A stretch of 58,105 nucleotides of DNA from an uncultured Pseudomonadales bacterium (GCA_964564895.1 CAZMCB010000003.1:6800-64904), one strand, 5' to 3'. Shown: positions 7,052 to 55,550, numbered from the stretch's first letter. Notes: generated from the letters alone by a model not told the origin. Numbers and translations are program-made.

Positions 7052-7052
7052 A

Positions 7053-7571
7053 ATGTTAAGAAAAATAAAACTTTTCCTACTCATCGGTTCAGTGATTATT
7101 CTTATCGCTATTGTTACTCTTTTAATTTCTAAATCAATTTCTCCAAAAACAAACATAGAAACTACTCCAGTTCTTACCGAAATCACAACACCTGGAATTT
7201 CCCTTCTCACTCAATCAGACTCTACCAAGGCACTTGAAATAAAGAAAACTCTTCTTCCCAAACTACCTATTTACATATATAGTTTCCAGACCTCTGTTGG
7301 AATCACTACAGATATTGCAATTTCTTCTTATTTAAACGATACCGAAGAGACAGTTAGGATTGAAATCTTTGGTCTCAATTATGTCTACGATCAAAACGAT
7401 CCTCAAACTAATCCCAACATGATTGCCTTCAAAGAATCATTTGAAAAAGTGAAGGAAATTTTCGCAGAAAACAATGTCAATATTAACGAACTTCACATTT
7501 CCTTAGGAAACAAGAAGTATATTCGTGATATTGCCGAAACCTGGATAAAGACTCTTAATCTTCTGCCTTAA
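7053..7571 (+). CDS. Single-TM hypothetical protein
   Basis: Basic N-terminus, one hydrophobic helix, Thr-rich linker; translationally coupled to the upstream gene. Confidence 0.7.
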   Translation: MLRKIKLFLLIGSVIILIAIVTLLISKSISPKTNIETTPVLTEITTPGISLLTQSDSTKALEIKKTLLPKLPIYIYSFQTSVGITTDIAISSYLNDTEETVRIEIFGLNYVYDQNDPQTNPNMIAFKESFEKVKEIFAENNVNINELHISLGNKKYIRDIAETWIKTLNLLP

Positions 7572-7603
7572 ACTCCTTCACTCGTGTATAATAATTTTTG
7601 AAT

Positions 7604-9538: not shown

Positions 9539-9597
9539 AGTAAATTTAGTCAAGCATACAGAAAACATTCTGGCATTTTTTTCGCCCCAAAAAGGAA

Positions 9598-12180: not shown

Positions 12181-13035
12181 ATGGCTATTCAACAGCATCC
12201 ACTACCCCAAGACATTAGTAGCTACCGCTTCAGGCTCATTGGTGACATGACCCTCAAACAGTTTGCTTCTCTAGGAATTTGCATTATTCTGGCAATTATT
12301 TCTTACAGTCTTCCTTTGCCTTTTTTCTTCAAATATCCCATTGTTTTTGCCTTTCTATTGCTTGGAGTCGGCATGGCTTTTGTCCCAGTTCAGGGGCGCT
12401 CTCTTGATATCTGGCTAGTTGCCTTTATAAAATCCATCTACTCACCTACTCAATACACATGGAAAAGAACCCTTGCCGAAACAACGAGCTCCGAAACCGC
12501 AGTTCCTACCAAAGAAAACAACCTAGCTGTTGCTCAGCCGGAAACAAATGCCAGAATTGAACTAACTCAAGCACCTGTCGCCCCACAGCCAGCAGCTCCA
12601 AATCCAGTTATCACAACCGAGCCAGAAATCACCATTAAAGAATCTCCCTCTCCTGTTGAAAAACCCTCGACGACTCCTCAACCTACGTCCCAACCCATTC
12701 CCCAACCACAAACTCAACCAGCACCAGCCACTCAAGCTCCTGTTCCCTCAGTCAATCTTCCCATTCCTTTTACTCCAACAACCCCAAATACTTTAGTTGG
12801 TCTTACTCTCACAAACACAGGGCATATTCTCGACTCAGTCATGGTAGAAATCAAAAAAGACAACCTCACTCTTAGAGCAACCAAAAGCAACAAGCTTGGC
12901 CAATTTATGTTTGCGAGACCCCTAGACTCGGGGCTTTTCCAAATTCTTGCTGAAAAAGAAGGTTTTTCTTTTGCTCCTTACTCACTTCAGTTAACTGGAG
13001 AAATTGTCAAACCTCTAAAAATTCAAGCCCAATAA
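12181..13035 (+). CDS. PrgI-family (VirB3-like) protein with Pro-rich linker and C-terminal beta-domain
   Basis: QHPLPQDISSYRFRLIGDMTLKQF plus two TM helices typical of PrgI; immediately upstream of VirB4. Confidence 0.75.
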   Translation: MAIQQHPLPQDISSYRFRLIGDMTLKQFASLGICIILAIISYSLPLPFFFKYPIVFAFLLLGVGMAFVPVQGRSLDIWLVAFIKSIYSPTQYTWKRTLAETTSSETAVPTKENNLAVAQPETNARIELTQAPVAPQPAAPNPVITTEPEITIKESPSPVEKPSTTPQPTSQPIPQPQTQPAPATQAPVPSVNLPIPFTPTTPNTLVGLTLTNTGHILDSVMVEIKKDNLTLRATKSNKLGQFMFARPLDSGLFQILAEKEGFSFAPYSLQLTGEIVKPLKIQAQ

Positions 13036-13037
13036 CC

Positions 13038-13679
13038 ATGCCTGACAACATCAAAGCCTCAACCCAAGAACATCTCGATATCTATGCCATTAAAGATCAT
13101 TTGGTGTTTCTTAAAGATGGTTCTGCCGCCTTAGTTTTAAAAACAACTGCCATAAACTTCAATCTTCTTTCAGAAGAAGAGCAAGATGCCATCATTTATG
13201 CCTATGCTGGTCTATTAAACTCGCTCTCCTTCCCAATTCAAATTCTTATTCGCTCCCAAAGAAAAAACATCTCAGATTATCTTGGTCTTATCGACACGAG
13301 AATTCAATCAACTTCATCTCAAAAAATCAAAGAGCAGCTTCTTGCCTATCGTCAATTTGTAAAGTCACTAGTCAAAGAAAATCGCGTGTTAGAAAAAAAA
13401 TTCTACGTCGTTATTCCTTTCTCGGCAGTAGAACTAGGTATTTCCAAGTCGACCTTTAATCCATTTACCAAAGCTCCTCAGAAACCTCCCTTTGACTTAG
13501 TTTATATTGAAGAAAAGGCCTCAACCACACTCTATCCGCGCCGAGACCACCTGATTCGCCAGTTCGCCCGCTTAGGTCTCAAGGCCTCACAACTAACAAC
13601 CAGCGAGTTAGTTACTTTCTTTTACTCCATCTACAATCAAGGTACTTCCTCTCAATCAATTCCACCTACCCAACCATAA
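13038..13679 (+). CDS. T4SS-associated protein resembling the VirB4/TraC N-terminal region
   Basis: STQEHLDIYAIKDHLVFLKDG..AINFNLLSEEEQDAIIYAY..LNSLSFPIQI; lies between prgI and virB4. Confidence 0.55.
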   Translation: MPDNIKASTQEHLDIYAIKDHLVFLKDGSAALVLKTTAINFNLLSEEEQDAIIYAYAGLLNSLSFPIQILIRSQRKNISDYLGLIDTRIQSTSSQKIKEQLLAYRQFVKSLVKENRVLEKKFYVVIPFSAVELGISKSTFNPFTKAPQKPPFDLVYIEEKASTTLYPRRDHLIRQFARLGLKASQLTTSELVTFFYSIYNQGTSSQSIPPTQP

Positions 13680-13706
13680 ATTACCCTCTTTCGGTTATAC
13701 TTAATC

Positions 13707-15551
13707 ATGGGTTTAAATCTCTTTTCTCTTGGTGCCAAAAAGACTCAAACTACAGCCACACCTGTGGTTTCCCAAGACACACCCAAACAAGAAAAACCTC
13801 GAGCTCCTCTCTCAGCAATAAAAGACACCGCCAACGCCACTTCAATTCAAGATGTCTTAGCTCCATCTGCTATAGAGGTTGATTTTTCTTTTATCAAAAT
13901 CGACGATAACTACATCCGTACTCTATTCGTTACTGGCTACCCTCGATATGTCTCTGCCAACTGGCTTGCCCCTCTTGTTAACTTCAATCATTCGCTCGAT
14001 ATTTCCATGTACGTTTATCCTAGCGACTCCAAAGACACTCTTGATAATCTCCGTCGACGCCTTGCGGAGATGGAAGCCGAAATTAATACCGACATAGAAA
14101 GAGGTCGTATTCCTCAAGCGGCCACAGAAGCAGCTCTAGAAGACGCTAAAACCCTCCAAGAACAGCTTGTCAAAGGAGCCGAACGTTTCTTTCAATTCTC
14201 TCTTTACATCAGTATTTCCGCCGAGTCCGAGAAAGAGCTAAATACTGTCACTTCACAAGTTCAAAGTATGCTTGCCTCACTTCTTATCATTAGTAAAGTT
14301 GCCTCCCTTTCTATGGAAGATGCCTTCAAAACCACACTTCCGTACTGCAAAGACAAACTAATGATTACCAGAAACATGGACACCACCGCCCTGTCCACCA
14401 CTTTTCCATTTACAAGCTCAGAACTCTCCGACAACCAAGGAATTCTCTACGGCATCAATGCTCACAACGATTCTTTGGTAATCTTTGATCGTTTCTCCCT
14501 AGAAAACGCCAACATGCTAGTTTTGGCTACAGCAGGTGCCGGAAAGTCTTATGCTGTCAAGCTTGAAATTCTTCGGTCTCTTATGTTTGACACTCAAATA
14601 ATTATTCTCGACCCAGAAAACGAATACGAGATGGTTACCAAGGCTGTCGGAGGAAACTATATTTCATTCTCGTCCACTTCTCCTCACAAAATTAATCCTT
14701 TTCAGATTGCTCGTCCGGCTGAAAGTACTGAAGACGAAATGGGTTACAAATATCTCTTTCTTATGTCTCTACTTAAAATCATGATTGGTGAGATGTCACC
14801 TATGGAAGAGGCTACTATGAATCGAGCTCTAGTTCTCACTTATCGCCAAAAAAATATCACCGAAGACCCTGCCACTCACACTCAAGAACCACCCCGTATG
14901 GAAGATCTCTATCGCGCCATTATTGGTATGGAAGATGCCACAGCGAAAACTCTAGCTGCCAGACTTGAGCGTTACGTCATGGGTAGTATTAAAGGCACTT
15001 TTGACCAACAATCAAATATCAATATCGACGCTCCTGTTACTGTTTTCTCCATGCGTGATCTTGCTGACGAAATCCGACCAATTGTTATGTTTATGATTCT
15101 AGACTTTGTCTGGACCGAGATCAGAAAGAATCTTCGAAAGAGAATGCTCATTGTTGATGAAGCTTGGTATCTTATGCGTTACGAAGACTCAGCCAAAATT
15201 CTTCAAGGTTTTGTCAAACGTGCACGTAAATACTATCTTGGTGTCACCGTCATTTCTCAAAACGTTGATGATTTCTTAGCCTCACCCTACGGAAAAGCCA
15301 TTATTACCAACTCAGCCCTCAAATTCCTTCTCAAACAATCCTCAGCCGCTATAAACCAAATTGCCGAAGTTTTTTATCTCTCTCAAGGCGAAAAGCAGCT
15401 TCTTGTCTCGGCAGGCGTTGGAGAAGGAATCTTCTTTGCCGGTCAAAACCACGTCGCCATTAGAGTTATTTCTTCACCAGACGAGCATGCTTTAGCCACC
15501 ACCAAACCTTCAGAAATTCTTGAACGTCAAAAACAAGCAGCGACTTTGTAA
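13707..15551 (+). CDS. virB4: VirB4-like T4SS ATPase
   Basis: Walker A ATAGAGKS, IILDPENEY, Walker B LIVDEAW, RARKYYLG..ISQ, GEG motif. Confidence 0.85.
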   Translation: MGLNLFSLGAKKTQTTATPVVSQDTPKQEKPRAPLSAIKDTANATSIQDVLAPSAIEVDFSFIKIDDNYIRTLFVTGYPRYVSANWLAPLVNFNHSLDISMYVYPSDSKDTLDNLRRRLAEMEAEINTDIERGRIPQAATEAALEDAKTLQEQLVKGAERFFQFSLYISISAESEKELNTVTSQVQSMLASLLIISKVASLSMEDAFKTTLPYCKDKLMITRNMDTTALSTTFPFTSSELSDNQGILYGINAHNDSLVIFDRFSLENANMLVLATAGAGKSYAVKLEILRSLMFDTQIIILDPENEYEMVTKAVGGNYISFSSTSPHKINPFQIARPAESTEDEMGYKYLFLMSLLKIMIGEMSPMEEATMNRALVLTYRQKNITEDPATHTQEPPRMEDLYRAIIGMEDATAKTLAARLERYVMGSIKGTFDQQSNINIDAPVTVFSMRDLADEIRPIVMFMILDFVWTEIRKNLRKRMLIVDEAWYLMRYEDSAKILQGFVKRARKYYLGVTVISQNVDDFLASPYGKAIITNSALKFLLKQSSAAINQIAEVFYLSQGEKQLLVSAGVGEGIFFAGQNHVAIRVISSPDEHALATTKPSEILERQKQAATL

Positions 15552-15557
15552 ACTGTT

Positions 15558-19909: not shown

Positions 19910-20216
19910 AGATTTTCCTTCTAATTATTATATTAATCTAAAAACTAGTAACAATAGTAATAAGGTATGTTGATTTGTTGATTATACGCACGAGTCAATC
20001 TTGATTTTTGTGTTAATAAATATTGTTCAATTGTTATATCGCGCTTTTTAAAGCATTTTTACAATTTCGGAAGACTGAAAAGTTCAGAACAACCGATTTA
20101 TCTTGTTGATAATTTTCTGGATAACTTTGTATCCTTATCAACATTTCTTTTTAATGACCCTTATTTAATCCACCATTTTCGAAGTTATCCACGCTCTGGG
20201 GATAAGTTGTGGATAT
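19910..20216. other. oriC (dnaA-dnaN intergenic part) with DnaA boxes, DnaA-trios and AT cluster
   Basis: DnaA-box-like 9-mers at 20104-12, 20116-24, 20135-43, 20185-93, 20197-205, 20208-16; tandem boxes 19968-84; TAG/TAA/CAA trios 19946-63; AT cluster 19925-36. Confidence 0.8.
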
Positions 20217-21596
20217 TTACGTGTATAACGCTTGTTTAATGGCAGTCACTTTTCGCCTTATATCGCTATTTTGGTCAACTTCACTTTTTACTTTTTCTAC
20301 TGCGTGCATCACTGTTGTATGATCTCTTCCACCCATAATTTCTCCGACCTTCTCGAGCTGTATATTTAAAGAGTCTCTAAGTAAAAACATAGCAATATGT
20401 CGAGCCACCACCAAGTCCGCTTTTCTACTAGTTCCCAAAAGATCTTTATTTCTATAGTCAAAATACTTAGCAACTGTTGAAATAACTTTAATTGGTCTCA
20501 CTTTAATTTCCTTTACAAAATTTGCGGGCAAACCCATTGTCTGTTGAACCATTTCTTTAGTGAGAATCCCCGCATCTAAACTAGCTCCGACGGCAAGCTT
20601 TACAAAAGTACCTTCGAGCTCTCTAGCATTGGTATTAAAGTTGTTTGCCATTAACTCATATGCACCATCTTCAACGTTTACATTTATTTCTTGAGCTTTC
20701 TGGCGCAAGATAGCCAGTCTCATTTCATAATCTGGCAATCCAATATCCACAGCCATTCCCCCAAGAAATCTACTCTTCAATCTATCCTCCAACCCTTCAA
20801 TATCTTGCGGTTTTCGGTCACTAGTCATCACAATTTGTGCAGATTTATTTGTAAGCTCATTAAAAGTATGAAAGAACTCTTCTTGGGTTGAGTCTTTTCC
20901 TCCAAAGAATTGAACATCATCAATTAAGAGTGCCCCAACTTGACGATACTTCTTTTTAAAAGCATCTGTCATTTTTGATCTGAGTGACCCTACCAAATCA
21001 TTTGTGAACTGTTCCGAAGTTACATATACAACCTTACCAACCCCTTTTTTTACTAACTCATGTCCCACCGCATGCATCAAATGTGTTTTTCCTACCCCTA
21101 CTCCTCCATAAATAAACAACGGATTGTGTCTGGTTCCAGGGAAATCTACGACTGCTTTTCCTGCAGCAAAAGCTAAGCGGTTTGAACTACCTACTACGTA
21201 ATTATCAAATAAATATCGAGGGTTCAAATTGTTACCTACCTGTTTGTCTGGTTCAGGTGAAACAAACAAATTCATATTAGGTTCTTCTTTTACCGTCTTA
21301 CTAGGTTTACTTTCTTTCTCTGTTTTGCTCTGTTCAACCACAATTAGAGCGACATCACACCTCTTATGAGAAATTTTTTCCATTACCTGTTTTATGGTGC
21401 TGAAGTATTTTTCGTCGATTGTTCTCACATGATAGGCTGTCGGTGCAGCAAGCTCTACAATTATTCTTTCGTTATCTATTGGAGTAATAGTTTTAATAAA
21501 ACAAGGTTTTACAAAACCGTTAAAACCAGCCTGAGACATCGAGACTGAAAGCTCTCCGCATACTGCTTGCCATAAATGATTGGCGTCAATTTCCAT
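20217..21596 (-). CDS. dnaA: Chromosomal replication initiator DnaA
   Basis: NPLFIYGGVGVGKTHL, LLIDDVQF, QEEFFHTFN, DRLKSRF, NARELEG, GGRDHTTVMHA. Confidence 0.98.
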   Translation of the reverse strand: MEIDANHLWQAVCGELSVSMSQAGFNGFVKPCFIKTITPIDNERIIVELAAPTAYHVRTIDEKYFSTIKQVMEKISHKRCDVALIVVEQSKTEKESKPSKTVKEEPNMNLFVSPEPDKQVGNNLNPRYLFDNYVVGSSNRLAFAAGKAVVDFPGTRHNPLFIYGGVGVGKTHLMHAVGHELVKKGVGKVVYVTSEQFTNDLVGSLRSKMTDAFKKKYRQVGALLIDDVQFFGGKDSTQEEFFHTFNELTNKSAQIVMTSDRKPQDIEGLEDRLKSRFLGGMAVDIGLPDYEMRLAILRQKAQEINVNVEDGAYELMANNFNTNARELEGTFVKLAVGASLDAGILTKEMVQQTMGLPANFVKEIKVRPIKVISTVAKYFDYRNKDLLGTSRKADLVVARHIAMFLLRDSLNIQLEKVGEIMGGRDHTTVMHAVEKVKSEVDQNSDIRRKVTAIKQALYT

Positions 21597-22524: not shown

Positions 22525-23277
22525 ATGCTCGCACCAATAAACGGAATCCTTTATCAAGCACTCCTATTTTTCTACCAACTCTTTGGGGGAAATCTTGGTC
22601 TCTCAATTATTGCCATCACTCTAATTACCAAAGTTATTCTCCTTCCTTTAGTTATTCCTTCTCTTAAGTCTGCCAAAAAGATGCAAGATCTAAAGCCTGA
22701 GTTAGACAGGCTCAAAGCAAAAATCACCGATAAAACAGCCTTTCAGCAAGCTCAAATTGCACTCTATAAAGAAAAGGGAATTAATCCAGCTGCAGGCTGT
22801 CTTCCTCAGATTTTTCAAATTATTATTCTTATTTCTCTTTATCAGGTCTTCATGTACTTCCTCAAACAGACATCTGTCGAAGGCACTGTTCTCAATCCAT
22901 ATTTTCTCTATCTAGACCTTACCAAGCCAGACAGAACCTACATAATGCCAATTCTCGCAGGTGTTTCACAGCTCGTTTTCTCTTTAATGATGCAATCAGG
23001 GGTAATTTCTGAAGTAAAAAATCCCAAAAAGAAAGATGAAAAGAAAAAAGAAGAAAACAAACTCGAAATGGCTACCAGCATGCAGCAACAAATGGTATAT
23101 ATGATGCCTCTTATGACCGTCATAATTTCAATTAACTTCCAGTCAGGTCTTGTCCTCTATTGGGTGTTGTCTACCATCTTCTCTTTAGTCCAACAATATT
23201 TCTTCTCTGGTTGGGGTGGTCTAATTCCTGCGATAAACAAAGCCAAACTTTTTCTATTCCGTATAACCGGAAAATAA
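22525..23277 (+). CDS. yidC: Membrane protein insertase YidC/Oxa1
   Basis: GLSIIAIT..K..LLP, LYKEKGINPAAGCLP..Q, GLVLYW, QQ motif. Confidence 0.92.
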   Translation: MLAPINGILYQALLFFYQLFGGNLGLSIIAITLITKVILLPLVIPSLKSAKKMQDLKPELDRLKAKITDKTAFQQAQIALYKEKGINPAAGCLPQIFQIIILISLYQVFMYFLKQTSVEGTVLNPYFLYLDLTKPDRTYIMPILAGVSQLVFSLMMQSGVISEVKNPKKKDEKKKEENKLEMATSMQQQMVYMMPLMTVIISINFQSGLVLYWVLSTIFSLVQQYFFSGWGGLIPAINKAKLFLFRITGK

Positions 23278-37313: not shown

Positions 37314-38129
37314 ATGGATCTAGCCAATGCAGTTTCCAAAACCAAGGCTTATGCGGGCTTCTTTAATTATCCTCTTTCAGAAGAGGAAACTCATCACTGG
37401 TTAATCTCAAAAAACGTCGTTTCTAAAGCATCTATCAAAAAGTTTTTTTCACCTTTAAATTCAAAAGAGCTAATCTACAAAAAGAATTTACTAAAAAATA
37501 CCAAAACAAAAGAAAAACTAGCTCTAGAAATATTAAAAATTACCCGATTTATCCCCTTTATCCGTCTTATTGCCCTTACAGGATCCGTCGCAGCAAACAA
37601 CTCAAAAAAAGAAGACGATTTAGATCTTTTAATTATTACTCAAGAGAACTCTCTTTGGTTAGTTAGACCATTATTTTTACTACTTCTGTCTTGTAATTTT
37701 TCTCGTCGACATCCAAGGGACGCCTCGCGCAAAACATCAAATGCCTTTTGTCCAAATCTCTGGTTAGACACTTCTTCTTTAAAAATTCCGGCAAATCGAC
37801 AGAATTTATATACAGCCCATGAAGTTCTTCAAATTAAACCACTCTTTGATAGGGGACAAACCTATCTTAATTTCATTTCAGCCAACCGCTGGACCAAGCA
37901 TTATCTTGCAAACGCTTATTATTCTTTCTCACAAAAAATTCCAGTCCAAAAACAAACACAACTCTATTCATATATTTTGTTTCCTCTAAATTTGCTATTG
38001 TTTTTTCTTCAATTTGTTTATATGTTACCTAAAAAAACCACTGAAACCGTTACTCTTCATACAGCTTTTTTTCACAAAAATAATCTTTCAAAAACACTCA
38101 ATAATCATCTCAAAAACAACTCGTTATAA
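37314..38129 (+). CDS. Pol-beta-superfamily nucleotidyltransferase-like protein
   Basis: IRLIALTGSVAANNSKKEDDLDLLII (GS-x-A..DxD); C-terminal hydrophobic helix. Confidence 0.6.
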   Translation: MDLANAVSKTKAYAGFFNYPLSEEETHHWLISKNVVSKASIKKFFSPLNSKELIYKKNLLKNTKTKEKLALEILKITRFIPFIRLIALTGSVAANNSKKEDDLDLLIITQENSLWLVRPLFLLLLSCNFSRRHPRDASRKTSNAFCPNLWLDTSSLKIPANRQNLYTAHEVLQIKPLFDRGQTYLNFISANRWTKHYLANAYYSFSQKIPVQKQTQLYSYILFPLNLLLFFLQFVYMLPKKTTETVTLHTAFFHKNNLSKTLNNHLKNNSL

Positions 38130-38140
38130 TTACCTAAGAC

Positions 38141-38947
38141 ATGGACATCTTTACTACCTATTTTTATCAGCCGTTTTTTAATATTTTAGTTGGAATTTAT
38201 TGGTTAGTTGGTCAAGTATTTCCAAACCCAGACATGGGAATTGCCGTTATTTTGTTTGCTGTTGCTGTTCGCATAATTCTTCTACCTATCGACCTAGCCG
38301 GAGATCGTTCTGCAGAGGACAAATACAAGATTTCCGAAAAAATCAAAGAACTTAAAAAAGAACTTGCAGCAGATCCTATCCGACTTAGATCAGAGATGAA
38401 GAAAGTTATGCGTACTCGTCCTGGAGCCATTATTTCCGAAATCATCAATGTCATTATTCAGGTACTGGTTATCTTGATGCTTTATCGCATATTTGTAACA
38501 GGGCTCGAGGGAGCTGATCTTCACCTTCTTTACAGCTTCATGCCCAAAATTCAAACACCAATTAATCTAATGTTCCTTGGGGTTTATGATCTATCACACA
38601 CAAACAACTCTCTAAACGTTCTTCAGAGCGTCATGATTGCCGCAAATGAGGCTATGCATTTATATTTTTCTCCTGTAAAACCAGACAAGAAAGATTTTGT
38701 ATCTTTAGTTATTCTATTTCCAATAGTCTGTTTTATTGTCTTTATGTTCCTTCCTGCCGGTAAAAAAATATATATTATTACCTCAATTGCCTTTACCATG
38801 ACAGTACGAATCGTCAAGCAGCTTATGTACCTCGTATATTCTTTTCAAAAAAAACCAGCTCCTGTGCCTGTTGAAGATACCTCATCCGTCTCGGAAAAAG
38901 ACCTTCCCTCAATGCCAACCCCAACATCTGACGAAAAGAAGATATAA
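38141..38947 (+). CDS. Second YidC/Oxa1-family insertase
   Basis: DMGIAVILFAVAVRIILLP, MFLG.YDL, LPAGKKIYIITS; divergent paralogue of 22525-23277. Confidence 0.75.
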   Translation: MDIFTTYFYQPFFNILVGIYWLVGQVFPNPDMGIAVILFAVAVRIILLPIDLAGDRSAEDKYKISEKIKELKKELAADPIRLRSEMKKVMRTRPGAIISEIINVIIQVLVILMLYRIFVTGLEGADLHLLYSFMPKIQTPINLMFLGVYDLSHTNNSLNVLQSVMIAANEAMHLYFSPVKPDKKDFVSLVILFPIVCFIVFMFLPAGKKIYIITSIAFTMTVRIVKQLMYLVYSFQKKPAPVPVEDTSSVSEKDLPSMPTPTSDEKKI

Positions 38948-38958: not shown

Positions 38959-39570
38959 ATGGCAGATTTTGATAAATTGGTTGTATCCTTCCTCGTTGAC
39001 GAAATCGTCGGCGGATTTTTCATTTCAGTTCCTCCAGGACATGTTGCCTGTGTTTATGATCGTGGTCGTGGAGTTCTCAAGAGTGTATGGGGTCCGGGTC
39101 TTCATCTCAAAATCCCCTTTTGGCAAATAGCTAAGTTATTTAACGCTCAAATTCTCGAATACACCATTCGTCATGGTTTTGATTTATCCCAAAAAGAGTC
39201 TTTAGGAGATGAACCTATTGTAGCCATGACCAAAGATGGTAAAACTATCTCTATCGAAGGCTCAATTCTATTCAAACTAGATAAAGCCAACGCCCCCGAA
39301 CTTTGGGAAAATATTGGAGACAATTTTATCTCAAAAGTTGTTCGTCCTTATTCTCGAAGCCGAATTTCCTCTGGCTTTAGTAAACATAATGCAGGAGATA
39401 TAAGCTCCGAAAGATCAAAAATTGAAAACACCATCAAAGAAGAGCTCAATAAACTATTTGAAGACAAAGGTCTTATTATTGAGAGCGTTCTTTTGTCCGA
39501 GATAAAAATTGTTGATTCCGGTTCAAAACAACCCGTTCAGACAATAGTCTCCACTCCCGCAACAGCTTAA
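38959..39570 (+). CDS. SPFH/prohibitin (band 7) domain protein without TM anchor
   Basis: VPPGHVACVYDRGRGV..WGPGLHLKIPF, MTKDGKTISIEGSILF, ERSKIE..IKEEL..KGLIIESVLLSEI. Confidence 0.8.
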   Translation: MADFDKLVVSFLVDEIVGGFFISVPPGHVACVYDRGRGVLKSVWGPGLHLKIPFWQIAKLFNAQILEYTIRHGFDLSQKESLGDEPIVAMTKDGKTISIEGSILFKLDKANAPELWENIGDNFISKVVRPYSRSRISSGFSKHNAGDISSERSKIENTIKEELNKLFEDKGLIIESVLLSEIKIVDSGSKQPVQTIVSTPATA

Positions 39571-39589: not shown

Positions 39590-42500
39590 ATGGCCTCGCC
39601 CAACTATTCTGTACTGCAGATTCGTCCTGCCAAAGACTCGCTTACTGGCCAAGCTGCCTTTGTTGAGTTTTTAGCCTCAATCAAGTCTTCTCTCAAGGCT
39701 GGTTTCATTGATAGACTTTTAAACACCTTTGAAACAATTACCTTAGAGATAGCTAATCTCAACCAAACAACATATTTTGTTATAGCTTGTCCTCCACGAC
39801 TTGAACACCTAGTTCGCTCACAAGTAGCCGCTCAGTATCCTACAGCTCTTATTACTCCAATGAAAGACTATCTTTCTGACTGGCTTACTCACGGTGAACC
39901 TCAGATGGGTCAACTAGTTCTCACCGGCCCATCAACCTTACCCATAAACGTCACTGAGGACGAAAAGGTTGACCAAATGACAGCTATTTTGGGTAGTCTC
40001 TCGAGAATTCCAACCGGACAAGCCGCAGTAATTCAAATCTGTCTATTTGCCGCTCCAGAAAACTGGCAAAAAGCATTACGAAAGACACTTGAACCAAAGC
40101 CTGTTGCCGAAGGTCAGCCCAAACCACCACCTAGTGCAGAAAAAACAATGGTCGAACGAAAGCTTGCCTACCAAGCTTTTGGTTGTGATATTCGTCTCGT
40201 TGCAGTTTCGCCCAGCGAAGCAACCTCTGGTCAGCTTTTATCGCAGATTGCAGCTGCTTTTGGAACTTACTCTCTTTCAGAGGGAAATGGTTTCAAGCTA
40301 AAAGTCGTCAAACCTGCCTCTGCCAAAAAATTAAGTGAAATGATCATCGAGCGATCCGCTAAGTTCTCAAATCAATATCAATTTTTAAATTACTCAGAAA
40401 TCTCCGCCATTTATCACTTCCCAGGTTTTAACTTAGCCAATATTAAGGGTATTGCCTGGGGAAAAACCCTCAGAGGAGAGCCTCCAGTCAATCTTCCCAT
40501 CGCCGAAGACATGACCGAAGAGGAAAAAAAGGAAGTAAATTTCTTTGCCAAAACCGAGTTCAAAAACAGAATGGTCTCTTTTGGAATGAAAAAAGGGGAA
40601 GATCGTCGCCGCCATGTTTATGTCTTGGGTAAATCTGGTACTGGTAAATCAACCCTCCTAGCTAACATGGCCATAAGTGATATTCGTCACGGTGAAGGAA
40701 TGGCTCTTGTTGATCCTCATGGTGACACCGCCGAACATCTTCTTGATTACATTCCTGCAGACAGAATTCAAGACGTCGCGTATCTTGACCCATCAGTTGT
40801 CGGCAAATCTTTTCATCTAAACCCTCTATATGTCAAAAACCAAGCCTACGCCGAGCTTGTTGCCTCAGGCATCGTTTCTATTTTTAGTAAGCTCTATGGC
40901 AATTCATGGGGTCCTCGTTTGGAATATATTTTGCGTAACTGTTTGTTGACTTTAGTTGCCAAGCCAGGTGCAACACTTCTTGACGTTCCTCGCATACTAA
41001 CCAACAAAGTTTTTCGTGAAGAGTATCTTGCTGCCGTTCAAGATCCAGTACTTCATAACTTTTGGCACGATGAGTATGACAAATACTCCGAAAAGTTCCA
41101 ATCTGAGGCTATTTCACCTATTTTAAACAAGGTTGGTCAGTTTATTACTTCACCCACAATTAGAGACATCATCAGCCATCCAACATCTACAGTTGATTTT
41201 GAAGACTTAATGAACAATGGCAAAATTATTATTCTCAATCTTCCTCAAGGAAAAATTGGTGAAGACAATGCAGCCTTACTAGGTGCCATGTTCATTTCTC
41301 AAATTCAGATCGCCGCCATGAATCGTGCCAACATGGCCGAGTCAGAACGAAAAGATTTCTTCCTTTACGTCGATGAGTTCCAAAACTTTGCCACAACTTC
41401 GTTTATAAAGATTCTCTCTGAGGCACGTAAGTATCGTCTCAATTTAATTCTTGCAAACCAGTATACTGCCCAGCTTCCCATAGAAATTCAAGATGCCATT
41501 TTTGGGAACGCCGGAACGCTCATTAGTTTTGTGGTTGGTGCAGCAGATGCAAACCGTCTCATGAACGAGCTCGGAAACTTTTACACTCAAGATGATCTCG
41601 TCGGCTTAGCTCGATATCAAATAATCGTTAAAATCTCCGTCAACGCTTCGATTTCTAATCCTTTCTCAGCCACAACGCTTCCTCTTCCAGAAGACAAGAG
41701 TGGTAATCGCCAACGAATCATTGAAATGAGCGAAGAACAATTTTATAGAAAAACTGAAGCACTCGATATGACTCAAGCGTCAATTTATGCTCCTAGTCCA
41801 CCTCCAGCCCCCAAGAGGGAATATCGCCCTAACCCCCAGCCATACTCAAATCAAAGATCTGAAGACCGCTCATACTTTCAGGCTACTCCTTACAGACCTC
41901 AACAACAGCCTCCACGCCCCAATTATTCTCCTCCGTCACATCCGGTAGAGAGACCTACTTCTCAAACACACACACTCCCTTCAAGGCCAATTCCTCCAGT
42001 TGCAAAGATTACTTCTAAAGAACCAACTCTTGAAGACTTAGACAAAGACAGGGCTGAAGGTCTTCGACCGAGTGTGGTTGGGTGTTTCTTAAACTCTGGC
42101 AAGATACTTTTTGTCTATCAAAAAAATCACAAACTCTGGCAGCTACCTCAAGGGGGAGTAGACAATCGAGAGAACATAGTCCAAGCATTCAAACGTGAAA
42201 TGACCGAAGAACTTGGAGAAAATTTTGTAAAACAAACAAGCTTCAAGCCAACTTTAATTATTGTCGATAAGATTGAGTTCCCGCCAGACAAACAAGGTCT
42301 GCGCGATATGCAGACAGACGCAGGTGTAGATGTAGTAATGAAAGGGAAAAAATACTATTTTCTTTACGCCACCTCTTCCTCATCCAATTTGATATTTCCA
42401 AGCGATGAAGAATACAATGATTTTAAGTGGGTAAGTTATGACGAGGCTGTAGAACTATCAAAGTCATCGTCTCAAGGAGGTAAGCTCAGAATTACCACAG

Positions 42501-42784
42501 CTGCCCTTGAAGCTCTAAAAACAAAAAATCTTCTTAATTCAGAAACCAAAGTTATTAATCAAAACAAAAAAGATGAATCCAGATCAACCAATCGACCCCC
42601 AAGGTCAAATTCCAAGCCAGCCTCTTTCACCAACCCCCCCAGAGCCAACACCACAACAGACTTGGCCAATCGACCAGAATCAACCATCACTACCTCCAGC
42701 GGAGGAGACAGCCTCCCAACCGTTACCCCAGAGCCAGGAGCCAACCTCCCAGCCTCCATCCCCAGTAACCCCACCTCAGCCTAA
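39590..42784 (+). CDS. VirD4/TraG-like coupling ATPase fused to a C-terminal Nudix hydrolase
   Basis: RRRHVYVLGKSGTGKS, DPHGD, FLYVDEFQNF, SEARKYRL; then P/Q-rich linker and LWQLPQGGVDNRENIVQAFKREMTEELG (Nudix box). Confidence 0.8.
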   Translation: MASPNYSVLQIRPAKDSLTGQAAFVEFLASIKSSLKAGFIDRLLNTFETITLEIANLNQTTYFVIACPPRLEHLVRSQVAAQYPTALITPMKDYLSDWLTHGEPQMGQLVLTGPSTLPINVTEDEKVDQMTAILGSLSRIPTGQAAVIQICLFAAPENWQKALRKTLEPKPVAEGQPKPPPSAEKTMVERKLAYQAFGCDIRLVAVSPSEATSGQLLSQIAAAFGTYSLSEGNGFKLKVVKPASAKKLSEMIIERSAKFSNQYQFLNYSEISAIYHFPGFNLANIKGIAWGKTLRGEPPVNLPIAEDMTEEEKKEVNFFAKTEFKNRMVSFGMKKGEDRRRHVYVLGKSGTGKSTLLANMAISDIRHGEGMALVDPHGDTAEHLLDYIPADRIQDVAYLDPSVVGKSFHLNPLYVKNQAYAELVASGIVSIFSKLYGNSWGPRLEYILRNCLLTLVAKPGATLLDVPRILTNKVFREEYLAAVQDPVLHNFWHDEYDKYSEKFQSEAISPILNKVGQFITSPTIRDIISHPTSTVDFEDLMNNGKIIILNLPQGKIGEDNAALLGAMFISQIQIAAMNRANMAESERKDFFLYVDEFQNFATTSFIKILSEARKYRLNLILANQYTAQLPIEIQDAIFGNAGTLISFVVGAADANRLMNELGNFYTQDDLVGLARYQIIVKISVNASISNPFSATTLPLPEDKSGNRQRIIEMSEEQFYRKTEALDMTQASIYAPSPPPAPKREYRPNPQPYSNQRSEDRSYFQATPYRPQQQPPRPNYSPPSHPVERPTSQTHTLPSRPIPPVAKITSKEPTLEDLDKDRAEGLRPSVVGCFLNSGKILFVYQKNHKLWQLPQGGVDNRENIVQAFKREMTEELGENFVKQTSFKPTLIIVDKIEFPPDKQGLRDMQTDAGVDVVMKGKKYYFLYATSSSSNLIFPSDEEYNDFKWVSYDEAVELSKSSSQGGKLRITTAALEALKTKNLLNSETKVINQNKKDESRSTNRPPRSNSKPASFTNPPRANTTTDLANRPESTITTSSGGDSLPTVTPEPGANLPASIPSNPTSA

Positions 42785-43040
42785 AAAATCTGGTTTCTTA
42801 AAAACGTTTTTTATTGTCATTGCCTTAATTCTTTTTGGAATTCTTCTTGGTGTCCTCGCTGCCAGATATATCCCAATGCCAAGTGCTGTCGTTACGCCAA
42901 CGCCCACACCAACCACATTAATTACACCCACACCCACCGTGTCGGTTAATCCTTCAGCTTCAATCTCTGGCGTAATAGTACAGAACGCTTCAATCTCTGG
43001 TGAGCTGGTTAAAGACGCATCAAGCTCAGCTCAGTTGTAA
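42573..43040 (+). CDS. Pro/Gln-rich single-TM protein
   Basis: Pro-rich N-terminus, KKSGFLK-TM, TPTPTP linker; overlaps the last 212 nt of the VirD4-Nudix ORF in another frame. Confidence 0.7.
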   Translation: MNPDQPIDPQGQIPSQPLSPTPPEPTPQQTWPIDQNQPSLPPAEETASQPLPQSQEPTSQPPSPVTPPQPKKSGFLKTFFIVIALILFGILLGVLAARYIPMPSAVVTPTPTPTTLITPTPTVSVNPSASISGVIVQNASISGELVKDASSSAQL

Positions 43041-43106
43041 AAGAAGCTCTAAAACTAAACAATTGTTCAGTCATAAAGAGACAGACGATGATTTAAATAG
43101 ATAAAA

Positions 43107-44012
43107 ATGGATAATCAGATTGTCAATCAATCCACCCAAACGAGCGAAACTCCGCCGCAGATAAACACGCCCACACCTCAGCCAATATCTCAACATATCC
43201 AAAACCCTCCCAAAAACTCAAACTTATTAATAATCATCCTTGTTGTAGCCATAGTTGTTACTGGTATTGTTTTTGGAATTCTCGTCACCAAACTCCTTTC
43301 GGATGCTAACAAATCAGCCTCAGTAACAAATATTGAAGGAACAGAAAGCTGGCTTACGTACACAAACAAAGCTTTAAAATACTCCATAAGCTATCCTTCT
43401 TCTTGGACGCTTCAAAATTTGTCAAACGGAAAGTTAATTAAAATTTACAATCAACCAGATAAAACAAAACCGGTAGGCGAGATATTTATAGAAAAAGTTT
43501 CCTTAGTCCCAATAAATATTAATGAGTATGTCGATACTGTGGCGATTGGGAATACTCAATTTCGGTGCTATTCCGATCAAGTGTCAAAGACGTGGTGCTA
43601 TCTTGAAAATGGAAAGTCCATAAAAATATCTCTTTTGATAATAAAAGATCAGGATGAAACATACAATCTTGTTTTGTATAAGATTCTTTCTACATTCAAT
43701 CTCAGGTCTGAGCTGGCAAAGATTTCTACAGAGCAGTTAACTGCCGGCTGGTACTGGGGGAACAAAGAGCAAAAACTCCCTGGGACTCCACTAACATGGA
43801 CATATACCGAAGCAGGCAAAAGCTCTTGTTGGCACAAGGCAGGAGTAACTTGTAAGGAAGTATCAAATACTACGGTAAATTATTCTTGCCCAGCGAGTGG
43901 TTGGGTTGACTGTATGCCCGTACTTGATGCCACCAAAACTGCTGCTTGTTCCTTCGAGGCGATGGAATGGTACAAAACCAACTGCCCCAATTTCCAAGGT
44001 GCGGCTCTCTAG
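43107..44012 (+). CDS. Single-TM surface protein (PsbP-like domain + Cys/Trp-rich tail)
   Basis: TM helix; WLTYTNKALKYSISYPSSW; tail GWYWG..KLPGTP..W and CP..GWVDCMP...NCP. Confidence 0.55.
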   Translation: MDNQIVNQSTQTSETPPQINTPTPQPISQHIQNPPKNSNLLIIILVVAIVVTGIVFGILVTKLLSDANKSASVTNIEGTESWLTYTNKALKYSISYPSSWTLQNLSNGKLIKIYNQPDKTKPVGEIFIEKVSLVPININEYVDTVAIGNTQFRCYSDQVSKTWCYLENGKSIKISLLIIKDQDETYNLVLYKILSTFNLRSELAKISTEQLTAGWYWGNKEQKLPGTPLTWTYTEAGKSSCWHKAGVTCKEVSNTTVNYSCPASGWVDCMPVLDATKTAACSFEAMEWYKTNCPNFQGAAL

Positions 44013-52455: not shown

Positions 52456-54984
52456 ATGGGTGCCTTAATCGCCACAATATTTACAGTCATTGTCGTAGCG
52501 ATTTCTTCTGTTGTCATCACCAGTCCTAATATCAACTTTGATAATCGTTCCAAAGCATCCACTTCCTCTTGTGCCTGTGTCGGTGGTTATCTCCAAAACT
52601 GTGGTGCTGGTTCTGGTTCTCCCTGTTCTCCCAGCACTACCCCCATTCCTTTAAGGGTTACTCCTACCGCTAGTGTTACCCCTAGTCCCAACGTTTACCA
52701 TCCCCCTGCTCCAACACAATCAGTCGTCACACCCACTTCTCCACCAACAGAAACTTCCACTACAACATCTTCACCACCAACACCATCCTGTGCCTGTGTC
52801 GGTGGTTACCTCCAAAACTGTGGTGCTGGTTCTGGTTCTCCCTGTTCTGCCAGCACTACCCCCATTCCTCTAGACGTCACTCCTACACCAGTTTGCCAAT
52901 CAAAATCTTGTATCGAGACCTGCACTCGTACAGTTCACCAATCTGGTTCTTGTGTAAATGACCAGTGTGTTTGTAATCAGCCTACTCCAACTCCGACACC
53001 CTCCTGCTCTTGTGTTGACGGTATCTATGGTGGCGAAAATTGTGACAAGGAAGGTAAAAAATGTGGACCAACACCGACACCCGTCCAATGCGCTAAGGAT
53101 CAAAAAAAGTGTCAAAAAGAGGGACTAAGTCATTTTGAATATATCTGTGATGCAAGTGGAAATTTCCAGAAAAACAAACGTTGTGATTTTGGATGTGACA
53201 CAGAAAATAACTGTGTAAAAAGATGCACCCCCGGTGAAAAGTCTTGTGCATATGATAAGGATATCGGTAATTACCTCTCTATTTGTTCACCGGATGGTAG
53301 TCAATGGATAAAAACACAGTGCTCTGGAACGTGTGACAAAGGCAAAGACGGCCCTCAATGCTTCGCAGACACAAAATATGATCACTGCGACAACAACAAG
53401 AAGGTCGCTATCCGTTATGACAAGGATGGAAACGAAACTAGAACCACCTGTACCTATGGTTGCAGTGACTCCTTCTGGGAAGGTTCCAAACCAGAAGCAA
53501 CATGCGTTGATAAGTTATATTTTGCCTGTACATCAGACCCTTCGTGTGCTAGTGGAAGCAGGCTGGTAGGAACAAACACCGTCAACGGTTCACTGTATAC
53601 AGGTGTCTCCCAATGTTGTAACTCCGGCGAGTCGTGCGACAAGAATCAGGGAATATGTGCCCCTTCAAACAAAAAAGATCTCGGTAAACCTTGTAAAGAT
53701 GGTGGCGAATGTAGTAGTGGCTACTGTTATTCTAACGACGAAATACAGTTGGCCAGTGTTGTCAGCAATCTCAATCCTCTCGCTCCATTTTGGACAGAAA
53801 ACTCTGCGATAGGATCTTTTGTTCCAGGTATAAAAGCAGATATAAATATCATCGCAAATACCTCTCCCGACGTCTGTCAAAGCCAGTCACTCACGTCTTT
53901 AGCCACGTCAGCCGTCGGTTCAACTTTTACCAACACTATGAATACTCTTGTCCCCGTCGATGCTTTAGAGAACTGTGGACGTTCCGATGGTATTCTAAAT
54001 CTTGATTGCGCCGTCTCTGGTATGGTTTTAGTTCCAGGAGGTACACAAGTAGCTGTTGGTAGTTTGGGTGAAGTGGTTGGAACAGCGAAATCTATTTGGA
54101 ATGTTGCTGGGGGAAATGTTTTAAAGGTCCCAAGCGCAACATACACATATGGGTCTAACATGCTTTCAGATATACCTCAGTGGGTCGGGCAAGCAGTTAC
54201 TGTCGCCAGCACTCTTCCTGGGGCATATTACGCAGGCAAATGTCTCTACGAATCATGTACTCCAGACGAACAAATGGCGGCATTTCTAACAGGAGTAGGT
54301 ATCCAAGATATTCAAGCACAGCAAATGATCGACAGTTCCGCCAGATATCCGAATAAGAAAACTGAAGCTAATTTGACTCTTAACAGACTGACTGATGATC
54401 TCTTTTACGATGTAAACAAAAACTACGGGGTGACGAAAATTGTTCTCGACAAAGATCAGATGGAAAAATATGTTATCGATAATCAAATCGTGCTAGGTAA
54501 TGGAGTTAAACCCAGTGATGCATTAGGTTGGTTCCAACCATCAAACAATGTGATTGTGCTGAGGAGTGGCTATGATCAACCAAGTCTATATCACGAGACA
54601 ACTCACGCTTTTAGATTCAACAACGGAGCAAATCAAAACATTTTGAAAAATTATATAGCACCACTGAACACAAGTAATGAATCAAAAATGGCCATCTACC
54701 AAGCTTTAGAGGAGGTTGGAACAATCTCCGAAGAGCTGAGGCTTCTTAACTCCATACCGAATTTGCCAGAAGAATACGTTTGGGGAGCAGAGAATTACAT
54801 GCAATACAGTGTTGATAGGTACGTGCGCGGGCTGGTCGATCTTCCCTCGGCTCCTCCGGAAGTTCTAAAATATCTCGATGAGCTGAAGGTTGTCGATCCA
54901 GCAACTTACGCTAAGATTACAGTACCATTAAGCGTTCCCCCTCCTGTTCCAGCCGTTCCCGTCACCCCTCCTCCATTACCTTAA
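52456..54984 (+). CDS. Modular Cys/Thr/Pro-rich surface protein B with C-terminal HExxH zinc-metallopeptidase domain
   Basis: Same N-terminus (..PNINFDNRSKA); ALGWFQPSNNVIVL..LYHETTH (54592-606)..YQALEEV. Confidence 0.7.
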   Translation: MGALIATIFTVIVVAISSVVITSPNINFDNRSKASTSSCACVGGYLQNCGAGSGSPCSPSTTPIPLRVTPTASVTPSPNVYHPPAPTQSVVTPTSPPTETSTTTSSPPTPSCACVGGYLQNCGAGSGSPCSASTTPIPLDVTPTPVCQSKSCIETCTRTVHQSGSCVNDQCVCNQPTPTPTPSCSCVDGIYGGENCDKEGKKCGPTPTPVQCAKDQKKCQKEGLSHFEYICDASGNFQKNKRCDFGCDTENNCVKRCTPGEKSCAYDKDIGNYLSICSPDGSQWIKTQCSGTCDKGKDGPQCFADTKYDHCDNNKKVAIRYDKDGNETRTTCTYGCSDSFWEGSKPEATCVDKLYFACTSDPSCASGSRLVGTNTVNGSLYTGVSQCCNSGESCDKNQGICAPSNKKDLGKPCKDGGECSSGYCYSNDEIQLASVVSNLNPLAPFWTENSAIGSFVPGIKADINIIANTSPDVCQSQSLTSLATSAVGSTFTNTMNTLVPVDALENCGRSDGILNLDCAVSGMVLVPGGTQVAVGSLGEVVGTAKSIWNVAGGNVLKVPSATYTYGSNMLSDIPQWVGQAVTVASTLPGAYYAGKCLYESCTPDEQMAAFLTGVGIQDIQAQQMIDSSARYPNKKTEANLTLNRLTDDLFYDVNKNYGVTKIVLDKDQMEKYVIDNQIVLGNGVKPSDALGWFQPSNNVIVLRSGYDQPSLYHETTHAFRFNNGANQNILKNYIAPLNTSNESKMAIYQALEEVGTISEELRLLNSIPNLPEEYVWGAENYMQYSVDRYVRGLVDLPSAPPEVLKYLDELKVVDPATYAKITVPLSVPPPVPAVPVTPPPLP
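52570..52869 (+). repeat. Intragenic 81-bp direct repeat (CACVGGYLQNCGAGSGSPCS module)
   Basis: 52570-52650 vs 52789-52869, 2 mismatches; a more diverged copy starts at 48830 in protein A and another lies near 55790-55855 in protein C. Confidence 0.9.
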
Positions 54985-54995
54985 AATTTAGATAT

Positions 54996-55550
54996 ATGGA
55001 AATCACAGAAAAAAACATAACCTACGACCTAGTGTCAAATTTATCAAAAAAACGTCTTGTTTTCCAAGAGGCGATTATTGTTGCAGACAAGAATACGGTA
55101 GATATCGCCTCAAACTCGATTAAAAAGGAGTCCGAAAACCTACTGTCTATTTATGCACCAATTCCTTCAAACACGGAAGATGGCTATCTGGTCTGTGAAC
55201 TGCTAAATAGGTATTACAACCAATTCTTTGATCAACAAAAACTCGACTTTTTGAAACAAAATATTGCTCTTGGTAGAGAAAAATATCCAATAAATACCGA
55301 GATTAAAAAAGACATCGACGAAATAAACACAGCTTCATTCCAATATTTTGGATCGAAAGACATAATTGGAGAGAAGACGATCGAACTAAAAAAAATGTCA
55401 AATCCAATTGCAAATGCTATCTTGAACACTCACATTGAAGAACTTTCATCAAGACACAAGATGGCAAACAAAATCATGAACATGCCAATAACCAATAGAA
55501 TATCTTGCTCAGAAAGCCAAACACATCTAATTGTCAATTTTAATAAATAA
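54996..55550 (+). CDS. Soluble hypothetical protein, candidate immunity/partner
   Basis: 184 aa, no signal or TM; between proteins B and C, its stop overlaps the ATG of C (TAATG). Confidence 0.6.
   Translation: MEITEKNITYDLVSNLSKKRLVFQEAIIVADKNTVDIASNSIKKESENLLSIYAPIPSNTEDGYLVCELLNRYYNQFFDQQKLDFLKQNIALGREKYPINTEIKKDIDEINTASFQYFGSKDIIGEKTIELKKMSNPIANAILNTHIEELSSRHKMANKIMNMPITNRISCSESQTHLIVNFNK

Follow-up and report, generated by a model that had tools for sequence, protein, structure and literature searches.

A patescibacterial orphan VirD4-like ATPase fused to an RppH-type Nudix domain

The ATPase-Nudix gene

The DNA analysed here, hereafter called the window, is a stretch of 58,105 nucleotides (nt; GCA_964564895.1, CAZMCB010000003.1:6800-64904) that contains a gene in which a P-loop ATPase is joined to a Nudix hydrolase domain. 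Coordinates are given as window positions, and residue numbers refer to the 1064-amino-acid (aa) open reading frame (ORF) of this gene, which runs uninterrupted on the plus strand from 39590 to 42784 and ends with a TAA stop at 42782-42784. ORF scanning, Pfam searches and an AlphaFold2 (AF2) model divide the product into a DUF8128 domain, the ATPase, a linker, the Nudix domain and a disordered tail. The soluble alpha/beta N-terminal domain (aa 1-290; 39590..40459) is defined by the precomputed Pfam annotation (DUF8128), by AF2 and by Foldseek. It is followed by a VirB4/VirD4/HerA-type P-loop ATPase (aa ~300-720; 40487..41749), recognised by Pfam, by sequence matches in the PDB, by Foldseek and by invariant columns in 57 homologues. 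Invariant in these homologues are the Walker A motif GKSGTGKS (aa 347-354; 40628-40651) and the Walker B motif FLYVDE (aa 591-596; 41360-41377). A P/Q/R-rich linker of ~80 aa (aa ~726-806; 41765..42007), with a predicted local distance difference test (pLDDT) score of 33-48 and covered by an indel-free contig, leads to the Nudix domain (aa 810-980; 42017..42529). The latter is of the RppH/Ap4A-hydrolase type according to Pfam, PDB, NCBIfam, AF2 and Foldseek, and its Nudix box, identified by motif reading, extends from G855 to E877 (42152-42220). The C-terminal tail (aa 986-1064, which with the TAA stop occupies 42545..42784) has a pLDDT of ~30. In the AF2 model aa 1-290, 300-720 and 810-980 are confidently predicted, and aa 726-806 and 986-1064 are disordered. 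The last 212 nt (42573..42784) are open in two frames of the plus strand: frame 0 encodes the tail of the ATPase-Nudix protein, and frame +1 the P/Q-rich, cytoplasmic N-terminal tail of a downstream membrane protein.

The unusual ORF length, the overlap and the presence of an A6 run just 5' of the ATG at 42573 could suggest an artefact, i.e. a misassembly or frameshift error merging two or three genes for the ATPase, the Nudix enzyme and the membrane protein. Independent Logan contigs from four other wastewater/sludge metagenome runs were therefore aligned to 41500-43100, and they show zero indels. One contig spanning 41666-42177 (end of the ATPase, linker and Nudix box) and one spanning 42564-42859 (overlap and stop) have 0 differences from the window. 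A contig from a variant strain differs at 24 positions over 42269-42516, and nearly all of those listed fall on the third base of frame-0 codons, as would be expected if purifying selection acts on the reading frame of the Nudix domain. Moreover, assemblies from NCBI, JGI, ENA and Logan contain the same architecture in 99 homologous clusters, and the A-run at 42573 is not conserved, whereas the overlap is. With these independent contigs and homologues, an assembly or frameshift artefact is ruled out for all practical purposes. A preliminary description of this DNA had read the ATPase and Nudix domain as a single ORF extending into the next gene. The Pfam domains and the contigs from the four runs, which have no indel, bear this out, and the overlap measures exactly 212 nt (70 codons plus the stop).

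The Nudix domain

The Pfam NUDIX model (PF00293) matches aa 827-955 with 46.3 bits (cut-off 21.1; E 5.4e-12). The Nudix box consensus GX5EX7REUXEEXGU is matched as G855-x5-E861-x7-R869 E870 M T E873 E874 L G876 E, the last U position being occupied by E877, which is not hydrophobic. The WQxPQGG motif is present as W850-Q-L-P-Q-G-G. The complete motif, WQLPQGGVDNRENIVQAFKREMTEELGE, corresponds to aa 850-877 and nt 42137-42220, in agreement with the location (~42140-42217) proposed in the preliminary description. The metal-ligand residues are E870, E873 and E874 plus E941, which aligns with the Glu of TPEFDGWRW in Escherichia coli RppH (E120), the fourth catalytic Glu, outside the box. The best sequence matches of the domain in the PDB are the lupin Ap4A hydrolase 1f3y (5.5e-8) and E. 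coli RppH (1e-6). An alpha/beta/alpha Nudix fold is predicted by AF2 with a pLDDT of ~90 for aa 810-980, and Foldseek finds RppH structures with template modelling (TM) scores of 0.67-0.73, the best being E. coli RppH (0.71-0.73). The NCBIfam top models are the RppH equivalogs (PRK00714). The RppH/Ap4A type proposed earlier for this domain is thus upheld by the PDB sequence, structural and NCBIfam top matches.

Residues E861, R869, E870, E873, E874, G876 and E941 are all intact in the window protein and in the 37 clusters of its subclade. Comparison with the other fusion proteins (42167-42220, aa 860-877, versus clusters P0033-P0115) shows that E861 and R869 change jointly in sister clades, to K/Q in 14 clusters and to Q/K in 12. 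These correlated changes look like a compensated salt-bridge swap. G876T occurs in 58 of the 99 fusion clusters, and ~20 of them have no E873 or are without another metal-binding Glu; the E870/E873/E874 triad is kept in about three quarters. The nearest Nudix relatives overall are free-standing proteins of 172-176 aa from the Candidate Phyla Radiation (CPR), with 42-53% identity, and these retain every canonical Nudix residue. From these residue patterns, selection on catalysis is judged to be more relaxed across the fusion clade than in the free-standing enzymes, and the Nudix domain of the window is probably an active hydrolase.

Since the box is non-canonical in over one half of all fusion clusters, with WxLPQGG and the core conserved, the domain could instead be mainly a ligand-binding or regulatory module that senses a nucleotide, a dinucleoside polyphosphate or an RNA 5' end and gates the ATPase. 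We consider this clearly unlikely for the window protein. All canonical residues are intact in it and in its 37 subclade clusters, the metal-binding triad persists in most fusion clusters, and the E861/R869 changes resemble an exchange of salt-bridge partners more than a loss of function.

In the other CPR genomes looked at, no Nudix gene was found beside the ATPase as a separate gene: the three free-standing homologues lie in unrelated contexts, one of them adjoining RNase Y and TruB. An origin of the fusion from neighbouring genes was considered and rejected, as the three free-standing homologues are not linked to the ATPase.

The motor ATPase and its N-terminal domain

In Pfam the motor matches DUF87/HerA at aa 340-553, plus, more weakly, TraG-D_C and TrwB_AAD_bind. 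The latter two are below threshold for this protein (20.0 bits versus 22 and 18.3 bits versus 20.5, respectively), and relatives in the family pass TrwB_AAD_bind (29-65 bits) and T4SS-DNA_transf (33 bits). The NCBIfam top model is the VirD4-like CD1115 family, also below threshold (40.6 bits versus a cut-off of 250), and the VirB4 sequence profile TIGR00929 is not passed, with 16.2 bits versus a cut-off of 643. The nearest PDB sequences are TrwB (4e-6) and DotL (3e-5). With the motor model, Foldseek retrieved VirB4, HerA, DotL, TrwB and Cag-beta, and the full-length model aligned to VirB4/TrwK over 800-890 columns, TrwK being the best full-length match. A helical insertion of seven helices lies between core strands at aa 418-528, as seen in the AF2 model only. 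An all-alpha domain inserted in the nucleotide-binding domain, a trait of type IV coupling proteins (T4CPs), is thus present in the predicted structure.

The N-terminal 300 aa modelled alone gave a pLDDT of 90.8 and a predicted TM score (pTM) of 0.90. The significant Foldseek matches of this domain are TrwK/VirB4 chains only (E 3e-7 to 2e-5, probability 1.0), with modest TM scores (TMq 0.44-0.51). No hydrophobic segment or membrane anchor was found in the ORF, in which the Kyte-Doolittle maximum over 19 residues is 1.37, compared with 3.0-3.3 for the neighbouring transmembrane proteins. The ATPase belongs to the VirB4/VirD4 superfamily, with a T4CP-like motor and a VirB4-like soluble layout, and without the anchor that defines classical coupling proteins. 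The preliminary description had called it a VirD4-like coupling protein. This is correct at the superfamily level only: the anchor is absent, the N-domain is VirB4-like, the T4CP models of Pfam and NCBIfam remain below their cut-offs, and the gene stands in a housekeeping neighbourhood 24 kb from virB4. Paralogy of the ATPase with the VirB4 protein encoded in the window (13707-15551) was also considered, and BLASTP gave nothing significant.

Age and spread of the fusion

Among 5.8 billion proteins searched, the ATPase-Nudix protein has more than 3,000 relatives, and the fusion counts given here refer to the 120 best clusters. The fusion architecture, i.e. a protein of >900 aa with the Nudix PQGG motif, is found in 99 of them, with 49-93% identity to the window protein. 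The Pfam annotation listed for the fusion clusters is mostly DUF8128 + DUF87 + NUDIX, and the named sources of the relatives are Candidatus Collierbacteria or Microgenomates. Synteny is seen between the window and four loci of relatives (L001, L003, L014 and L015), the order being VanW, SBP, an uncharacterised gene, YidC, Band_7, the ATPase, (the transmembrane protein), GroES and GroEL. In a further locus, L019, the YidC-Band_7-ATPase core and GroES/EL are conserved. The SPFH/Band_7 gene (38959..39570, plus strand in the window) precedes the ATPase gene in all the relatives looked at, and does so immediately except in L019, where a 122-aa ORF intervenes. The YidC-like insertase paralogue (38141..38947, plus strand) is likewise a conserved upstream neighbour. 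The preliminary description had regarded the fusion as a recent domain capture. The protein search recovers it in 99 of the 120 best clusters, over a broad range of identities and at a syntenic locus, which contradicts a recent origin. Judged from these sequences, the fusion is fixed in a whole clade, and the ATPase gene is probably inherited vertically.

Two side observations concern the upstream neighbours. The window has two YidC/60KD_IMP paralogues within 16 kb (22525-23277 and 38141-38947). The second is far more divergent (E 3e-17 versus 5e-46) and always accompanies Band_7 and the ATPase. The 271-aa neighbour at 37314-38129 has weak nucleotidyltransferase (Pol-beta/NTP_transf_2) similarity and is found 5' of YidC-Band_7-ATPase in all relatives examined.

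The C-terminal part of the ATPase varies at the orthologous position. In L014 the ATPase carries an S1 RNA-binding domain in place of the Nudix domain, and in L015 it has no additional domain. The ATPase family as a whole comprises 21,947 representatives (50% identity level, E <= 0.001). Among the 150 best of these, only one, the window's own cluster, has the Nudix domain, and 85 have C-terminal extensions of at least 100 aa. S1 domains are present in 8 of these extensions, and 14 fall in one cluster, of which the two members tested both have a treble-clef zinc finger. The occurrence of S1, zinc-finger or Nudix domains at the same C-terminal position indicates that the C-terminus is an exchange slot for accessory modules.

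The fusion might still be neutral, or serve housekeeping only. The clade's RppH-type Nudix gene would have joined the neighbouring ATPase gene and would act in general RNA 5'-end decay or in Np4N clearance, with no coupling to the motor. The close relationship to free-standing CPR enzymes in unrelated contexts is consistent with this, as is the long disordered linker, which implies no fixed geometry between the domains. On the other hand, the fusion has been retained over a clade of great depth, and the S1 domain or zinc finger of relatives points to a functional accessory slot. In addition, the box drifts in sister clades while the fold and LPQGG are kept, which is atypical of an essential housekeeping RppH. 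This explanation seems to us possible, if rather doubtful.

The overlap with the downstream gene

The downstream ORF starts with the ATG at 42573 in the +1 frame, so that 42573-42784 is shared. We compared this region in 11 distinct loci (the window, L001, L003, L005-L007 and L009-L013; 63-93% protein identity). In all of them the +1 ORF opens with ATG RAY CCA RAY (M[ND]P[DN]), 212-335 nt 5' of the ATPase stop, and extends into a transmembrane helix that is likewise conserved, KKSGFLKTFFIVIALILFG. In each case the stop of the ATPase gene lies in the codons immediately 5' of this helix. The earlier idea of an accidental out-of-frame tail does not agree with this conservation of the overlap, of the downstream start codon and of the position of the ATPase stop. 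At every locus, 1-6 stops interrupt the third forward frame over this region.

Codon-position divergence, expressed for positions 1/2/3 of frame 0, is 0.21/0.16/0.50 in the region 5' of the overlap, typical of frame-0 coding, and 0.59/0.37/0.23 in the region 3' of it, typical of +1 coding. Within the overlap it is flat (0.48/0.39/0.41). The synonymous share of differing codons in the overlap is 0.17 for frame 0, 0.19 for frame +1 and 0.13 for the control frame, versus 0.41-0.54 in the singly coding flanks. Both frames are thus kept open across species, and the amino-acid constraint is weak in both. RNA sequencing runs that might support expression were looked for, and none was found. A tail motif, LANRPES...LPTVTPEPGANLPA, recurs in homologues; in those at 74-81% identity the recurring elements are LAxRPxS, LPA, EPGAxLPA and a C-terminal SL[IV][IV].

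The tail and its overlap could be a by-product of composition. A C/A-rich, T-poor sequence encoding the N-terminal tail of the membrane protein would let the upstream ORF run on until it meets the T-rich codons of the transmembrane helix, and the tail itself would be functionless. The stop is indeed always located at the change of composition just 5' of the helix, the tail is predicted to be disordered, the constraint on frame 0 is barely over that of the control frame, and a deeper clade has no tail. The probability that frame 0 stays open depends on the null model: it is 0.05-0.44 per locus under synonymous shuffles within the region, as expected if composition suffices, but only 0.001-0.04 given the +1 protein and the codon usage of the genome. 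Comparable P/Q-rich segments of these genomes that lie outside any overlap, namely the linker and the N-terminal tail of the 43107 paralogue, served as controls. They have 1-4 stops in the equivalent frame and a third-position T content (T3) of 0.23-0.36, whereas the overlap has 0 stops and a T3 of 0.10-0.16, two- to three-fold lower. The stops in the third forward frame and the recurring tail motifs also speak against a purely compositional origin, which we regard as a somewhat improbable explanation.

The deeper Nudix-fusion clade (P0098-P0102; L019) stops directly after the Nudix domain and has no overlap. The tail is therefore not required for the fusion, and the overlap probably arose after it. 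A side observation was made in L015, which has no Nudix domain. There the P/H/Q-rich C-tail of the ATPase (6001-8433) overlaps a homologue of the membrane-protein ORF (8132-8776), and the ATPase stop is likewise just 5' of the transmembrane helix. The C-terminus of this membrane protein reads CPSTSWIDCMP...NCPGFKGAAY. The start codon is ambiguous, so that the overlap could have any length between 20 and 300 nt, and no motif is common to this tail and those of the fusion clade. From L015, an overlap may predate insertion of the Nudix domain.

Programmed ribosomal frameshifting in the overlap would be another possibility, as it would extend the ATPase-Nudix protein by the transmembrane helix of the downstream gene and supply the missing anchor. 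The ATPase has no transmembrane segment of its own, the +1 frame is open from 5' of the ATG, and the window has AAAAAAG at this ATG. However, a frameshift at this A-run had to be rejected, as the other 10 loci conserve neither this run nor any slippery motif at or before the ATG, which makes programmed frameshifting unlikely. Furthermore, the last sense codon before the TAA (GTC, ATC, GCC or ACC) would presumably be unable to re-pair in +1, and the conserved ATG, with M[ND]P[DN] at the beginning of the protein, suggests that the downstream gene is initiated independently. Altogether we find this mechanism very improbable.

A Shine-Dalgarno-like motif was seen at none of the eight starts checked (37314, 38141, 38959, 39590, 42573, 43107, 44118 and 44429), the upstream sequences being A/T-rich. 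Its absence at 42573 is consequently uninformative. Because of the overlap, the downstream gene is missed or truncated by gene callers: no overlapping gene is called in L003, and in L001 the gene is shortened to an internal ATG. The overlap also contains a 71-aa ORF on the minus strand (42559-42774). The reverse frames of the other loci have 0-7 stops and this ORF is not conserved; the scarcity of T in the overlap most likely accounts for it.

Downstream membrane proteins and other genes of the window

The downstream ORF (42573..43040, plus strand) encodes 155 aa, with a P/Q-rich tail starting with MNPD, one transmembrane helix (aa ~76-98; 42798-42866) and a T/P-rich stretch. It is a short version of the 191-424-aa transmembrane protein of relatives, and past the ATPase stop its codon-position divergence follows the +1 frame. 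Next to it, a paralogous single-pass membrane protein of 301 aa (43107..44012, plus strand) has a PsbP-like outer domain and a Cys-rich C-terminus, CPxxGWVDCMP...NCPNFQGAAL. In L001 (12951-13985) and L008, one 344-aa gene holds the MNPD tail, the transmembrane helix and the PsbP-like/Cys-rich outer domain. The first ORF of the window and of L003 comprises only the tail, the helix and a T/P-rich stretch (155-169 aa), and the outer domain is on the second paralogue, which has its own tail and transmembrane helix. It thus seems that the downstream gene was duplicated or split in the lineage of the window.

A patescibacterial type IV secretion system (T4SS) core (12181..15551) lies 24 kb upstream of the ATPase-Nudix gene and is not adjacent to it; the conserved neighbours of the latter are housekeeping genes. 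On the plus strand this region encodes a PrgI/VirB3-like protein (12181-13035; Pfam PrgI, 2e-7), a possibly TrsD-like protein of 213 aa (13038-13679), a true VirB4 (13707-15551; Pfam P-loop_TraG, 1.5e-28; NCBIfam VirB4-like CD1110 family, 376 bits, which exceeds the cut-off of 325) and, at 15558-18335, a protein of 925 aa that has a C39-like peptidase domain. The core (12181-18335), with 18797-21596 on the minus strand, is followed by dnaN, dnaA and the first YidC gene (22525-23277). A 2025 survey likewise places the virB4 cluster beside dnaA/dnaN in Patescibacteria (PMC12102498). No relaxase was seen among the window ORFs scanned, in a scan that was non-exhaustive. Several very large ORFs (645-845 aa) in 4514-12087 and 52456-57724 are without any Pfam match; some flank the T4SS genes, and they could be unrecognised T4SS or surface components.

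Discussion

We have shown that the window encodes a variation on two kinds of protein already known, an orphan VirD4-like ATPase of Patescibacteria and a Nudix domain of the RppH type. The function that we tentatively favour, with a probability of roughly 0.45, is that of an orphan chromosomal VirB4/VirD4-family ATPase of a tiny-celled Candidatus Collierbacteria bacterium (Microgenomatia, Patescibacteria) that works as a motor handling single-stranded nucleic acid and carries a tethered end-processing Nudix enzyme. The ATPase would form a ring motor at the membrane, where it would be recruited by partners and not by an anchor in its own sequence. Its invariable neighbours, the Band_7 and YidC proteins, are candidates for this role, as are the membrane protein encoded downstream and, perhaps, the VirB4 machine. 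The C-terminal appendage would be the substrate-engaging module, and the substrate most likely a single-stranded nucleic acid. At the motor, the tethered Nudix domain could remove a 5'-terminal pyrophosphate or Np4 cap, or hydrolyse dinucleoside polyphosphates. The processing of substrates at a secretion gate, suggested in the preliminary description, would be a hypothetical role. The S1 domain or treble-clef zinc finger at the same position in relatives, together with the RppH/Ap4A type of the Nudix domain, suggests such a nucleic-acid-handling motor with an end-processing enzyme.

Several points weigh against this proposal. A nucleic-acid substrate is suggested only by the kind of accessory domain that relatives carry. 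The best score of the Nudix domain with the RppH models of NCBIfam, 44.2 bits, is far below their cut-offs (116-259). In sister clades the box is partly degenerate, with R869 changed to K, Q or H, E861 to K or Q and G876 to T, and some members lacking E873, which suggests that catalysis is not essential everywhere. The free-standing Nudix proteins of other CPR genomes are not linked to the ATPase, and the fusion could therefore be functionally neutral. Finally, the synonymous shares in the overlap indicate weak amino-acid constraint in both frames, and the deeper fusion clade, which has neither tail nor overlap, shows that the fusion can do without the tail.

A more daring version of the nucleic-acid motor can be imagined. 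The motor could be part of a dedicated import, export or salvage route for nucleic acid (probably RNA or single-stranded DNA) in biosynthetically poor epibionts, with the Nudix domain preparing 5' ends at the channel. The 212-335-nt overlap would then be truly dual-coding, and the C-tail of the motor and the N-tail of its membrane partner would co-evolve as an interacting pair. This is highly speculative, and we consider it improbable.

In Patescibacteria (CPR), VirD4-like ATPases without linkage to a T4SS number in the thousands, according to the survey cited above (PMC12102498), and this locus gives three handles on their role: the VirB4-like soluble N-domain, the C-terminal swap site that accepts S1, zinc-finger or intact Nudix modules, and the fixed Band_7/YidC/membrane-protein/GroES neighbourhood. 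A role in nucleic-acid handling thereby becomes directly testable. It is uncommon for two frames of one strand to share more than 200 nt across bacterial species, and the present overlap provides a clean test case for dual coding of disordered tails.

Comparison with known systems

Database entries label the fusion simply "NUDIX domain-containing protein", and no description of it was found in the literature searched, nor was anything found there on DUF8128. For coupling proteins and Nudix enzymes, the literature search returned only the co-occurrence of separate genes, such as that of Pif. The latter is a Nudix hydrolase of the Streptomyces element pSAM2 that is involved in conjugal immunity (PMC3218068). 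Pif may be seen as analogous, being a Nudix enzyme functionally tied to a transfer system based on a DNA translocase. It differs from the domain described here in being a protein by itself and not part of a fusion, encoded by a mobile element that has the FtsK-like TraSA (PMC3218068).

With E. coli RppH (NudH) and the lupin Ap4A hydrolase 1f3y, the Nudix domain shares the WQxPQGG box, the aligned catalytic Glu residues including the E120 equivalent, and the fold (TM 0.71-0.73). It differs in having only ~20% identity, in remaining below the RppH equivalog cut-offs and in being embedded in a protein of 1064 aa.

Long out-of-frame overlaps (overprinting) are well known in viruses and rare in bacteria. 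Like these, the overlap consists of two same-strand ORFs that share more than 200 nt and are both open across species. Here, by contrast, both predicted products are low-complexity disordered tails under weak amino-acid constraint.

The resemblance to VirB4 (TrwK of R388) is in the layout, an N-domain followed by a C-terminal ATPase, and in the best Foldseek matches of both the full-length model and the N-domain. However, the VirB4 sequence models do not recognise the window ATPase, and the genome has a separate bona fide VirB4. As regards the orphan VirD4-like homologues of Patescibacteria, the 2025 survey gives 5,713 homologues in 2,918 genomes, only 148 of them near virB4, and its authors suggest possible exaptation for those away from virB4 (PMC12102498). 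The window ATPase agrees with this picture, as it too lies away from virB4, the virB4 cluster being beside dnaA/dnaN. The Nudix fusion, the DUF8128/VirB4-like N-domain and the Band_7/YidC/GroES neighbourhood are features that are absent from the passages of the survey consulted here.

Compared with the T4CPs (VirD4, TrwB, TraD, DotL and the CD1115 family of Firmicutes elements), the window protein has a 290-aa soluble VirB4-like N-domain in place of the N-terminal transmembrane anchor, scores below the family cut-offs, stands in a housekeeping locus and carries a Nudix enzyme. What it has in common with them is the P-loop motor of the FtsK/HerA/VirB4/VirD4 clade with its helical insertion, and T4CPs or their models are its best matches in the PDB (TrwB, DotL), in Pfam (TraG-D_C, TrwB_AAD_bind) and in NCBIfam (CD1115). 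It also shares with them a genome that encodes a VirB4/PrgI T4SS, and a variable C-terminal module at the position of the tail that, in T4CPs, binds substrates or adaptors.

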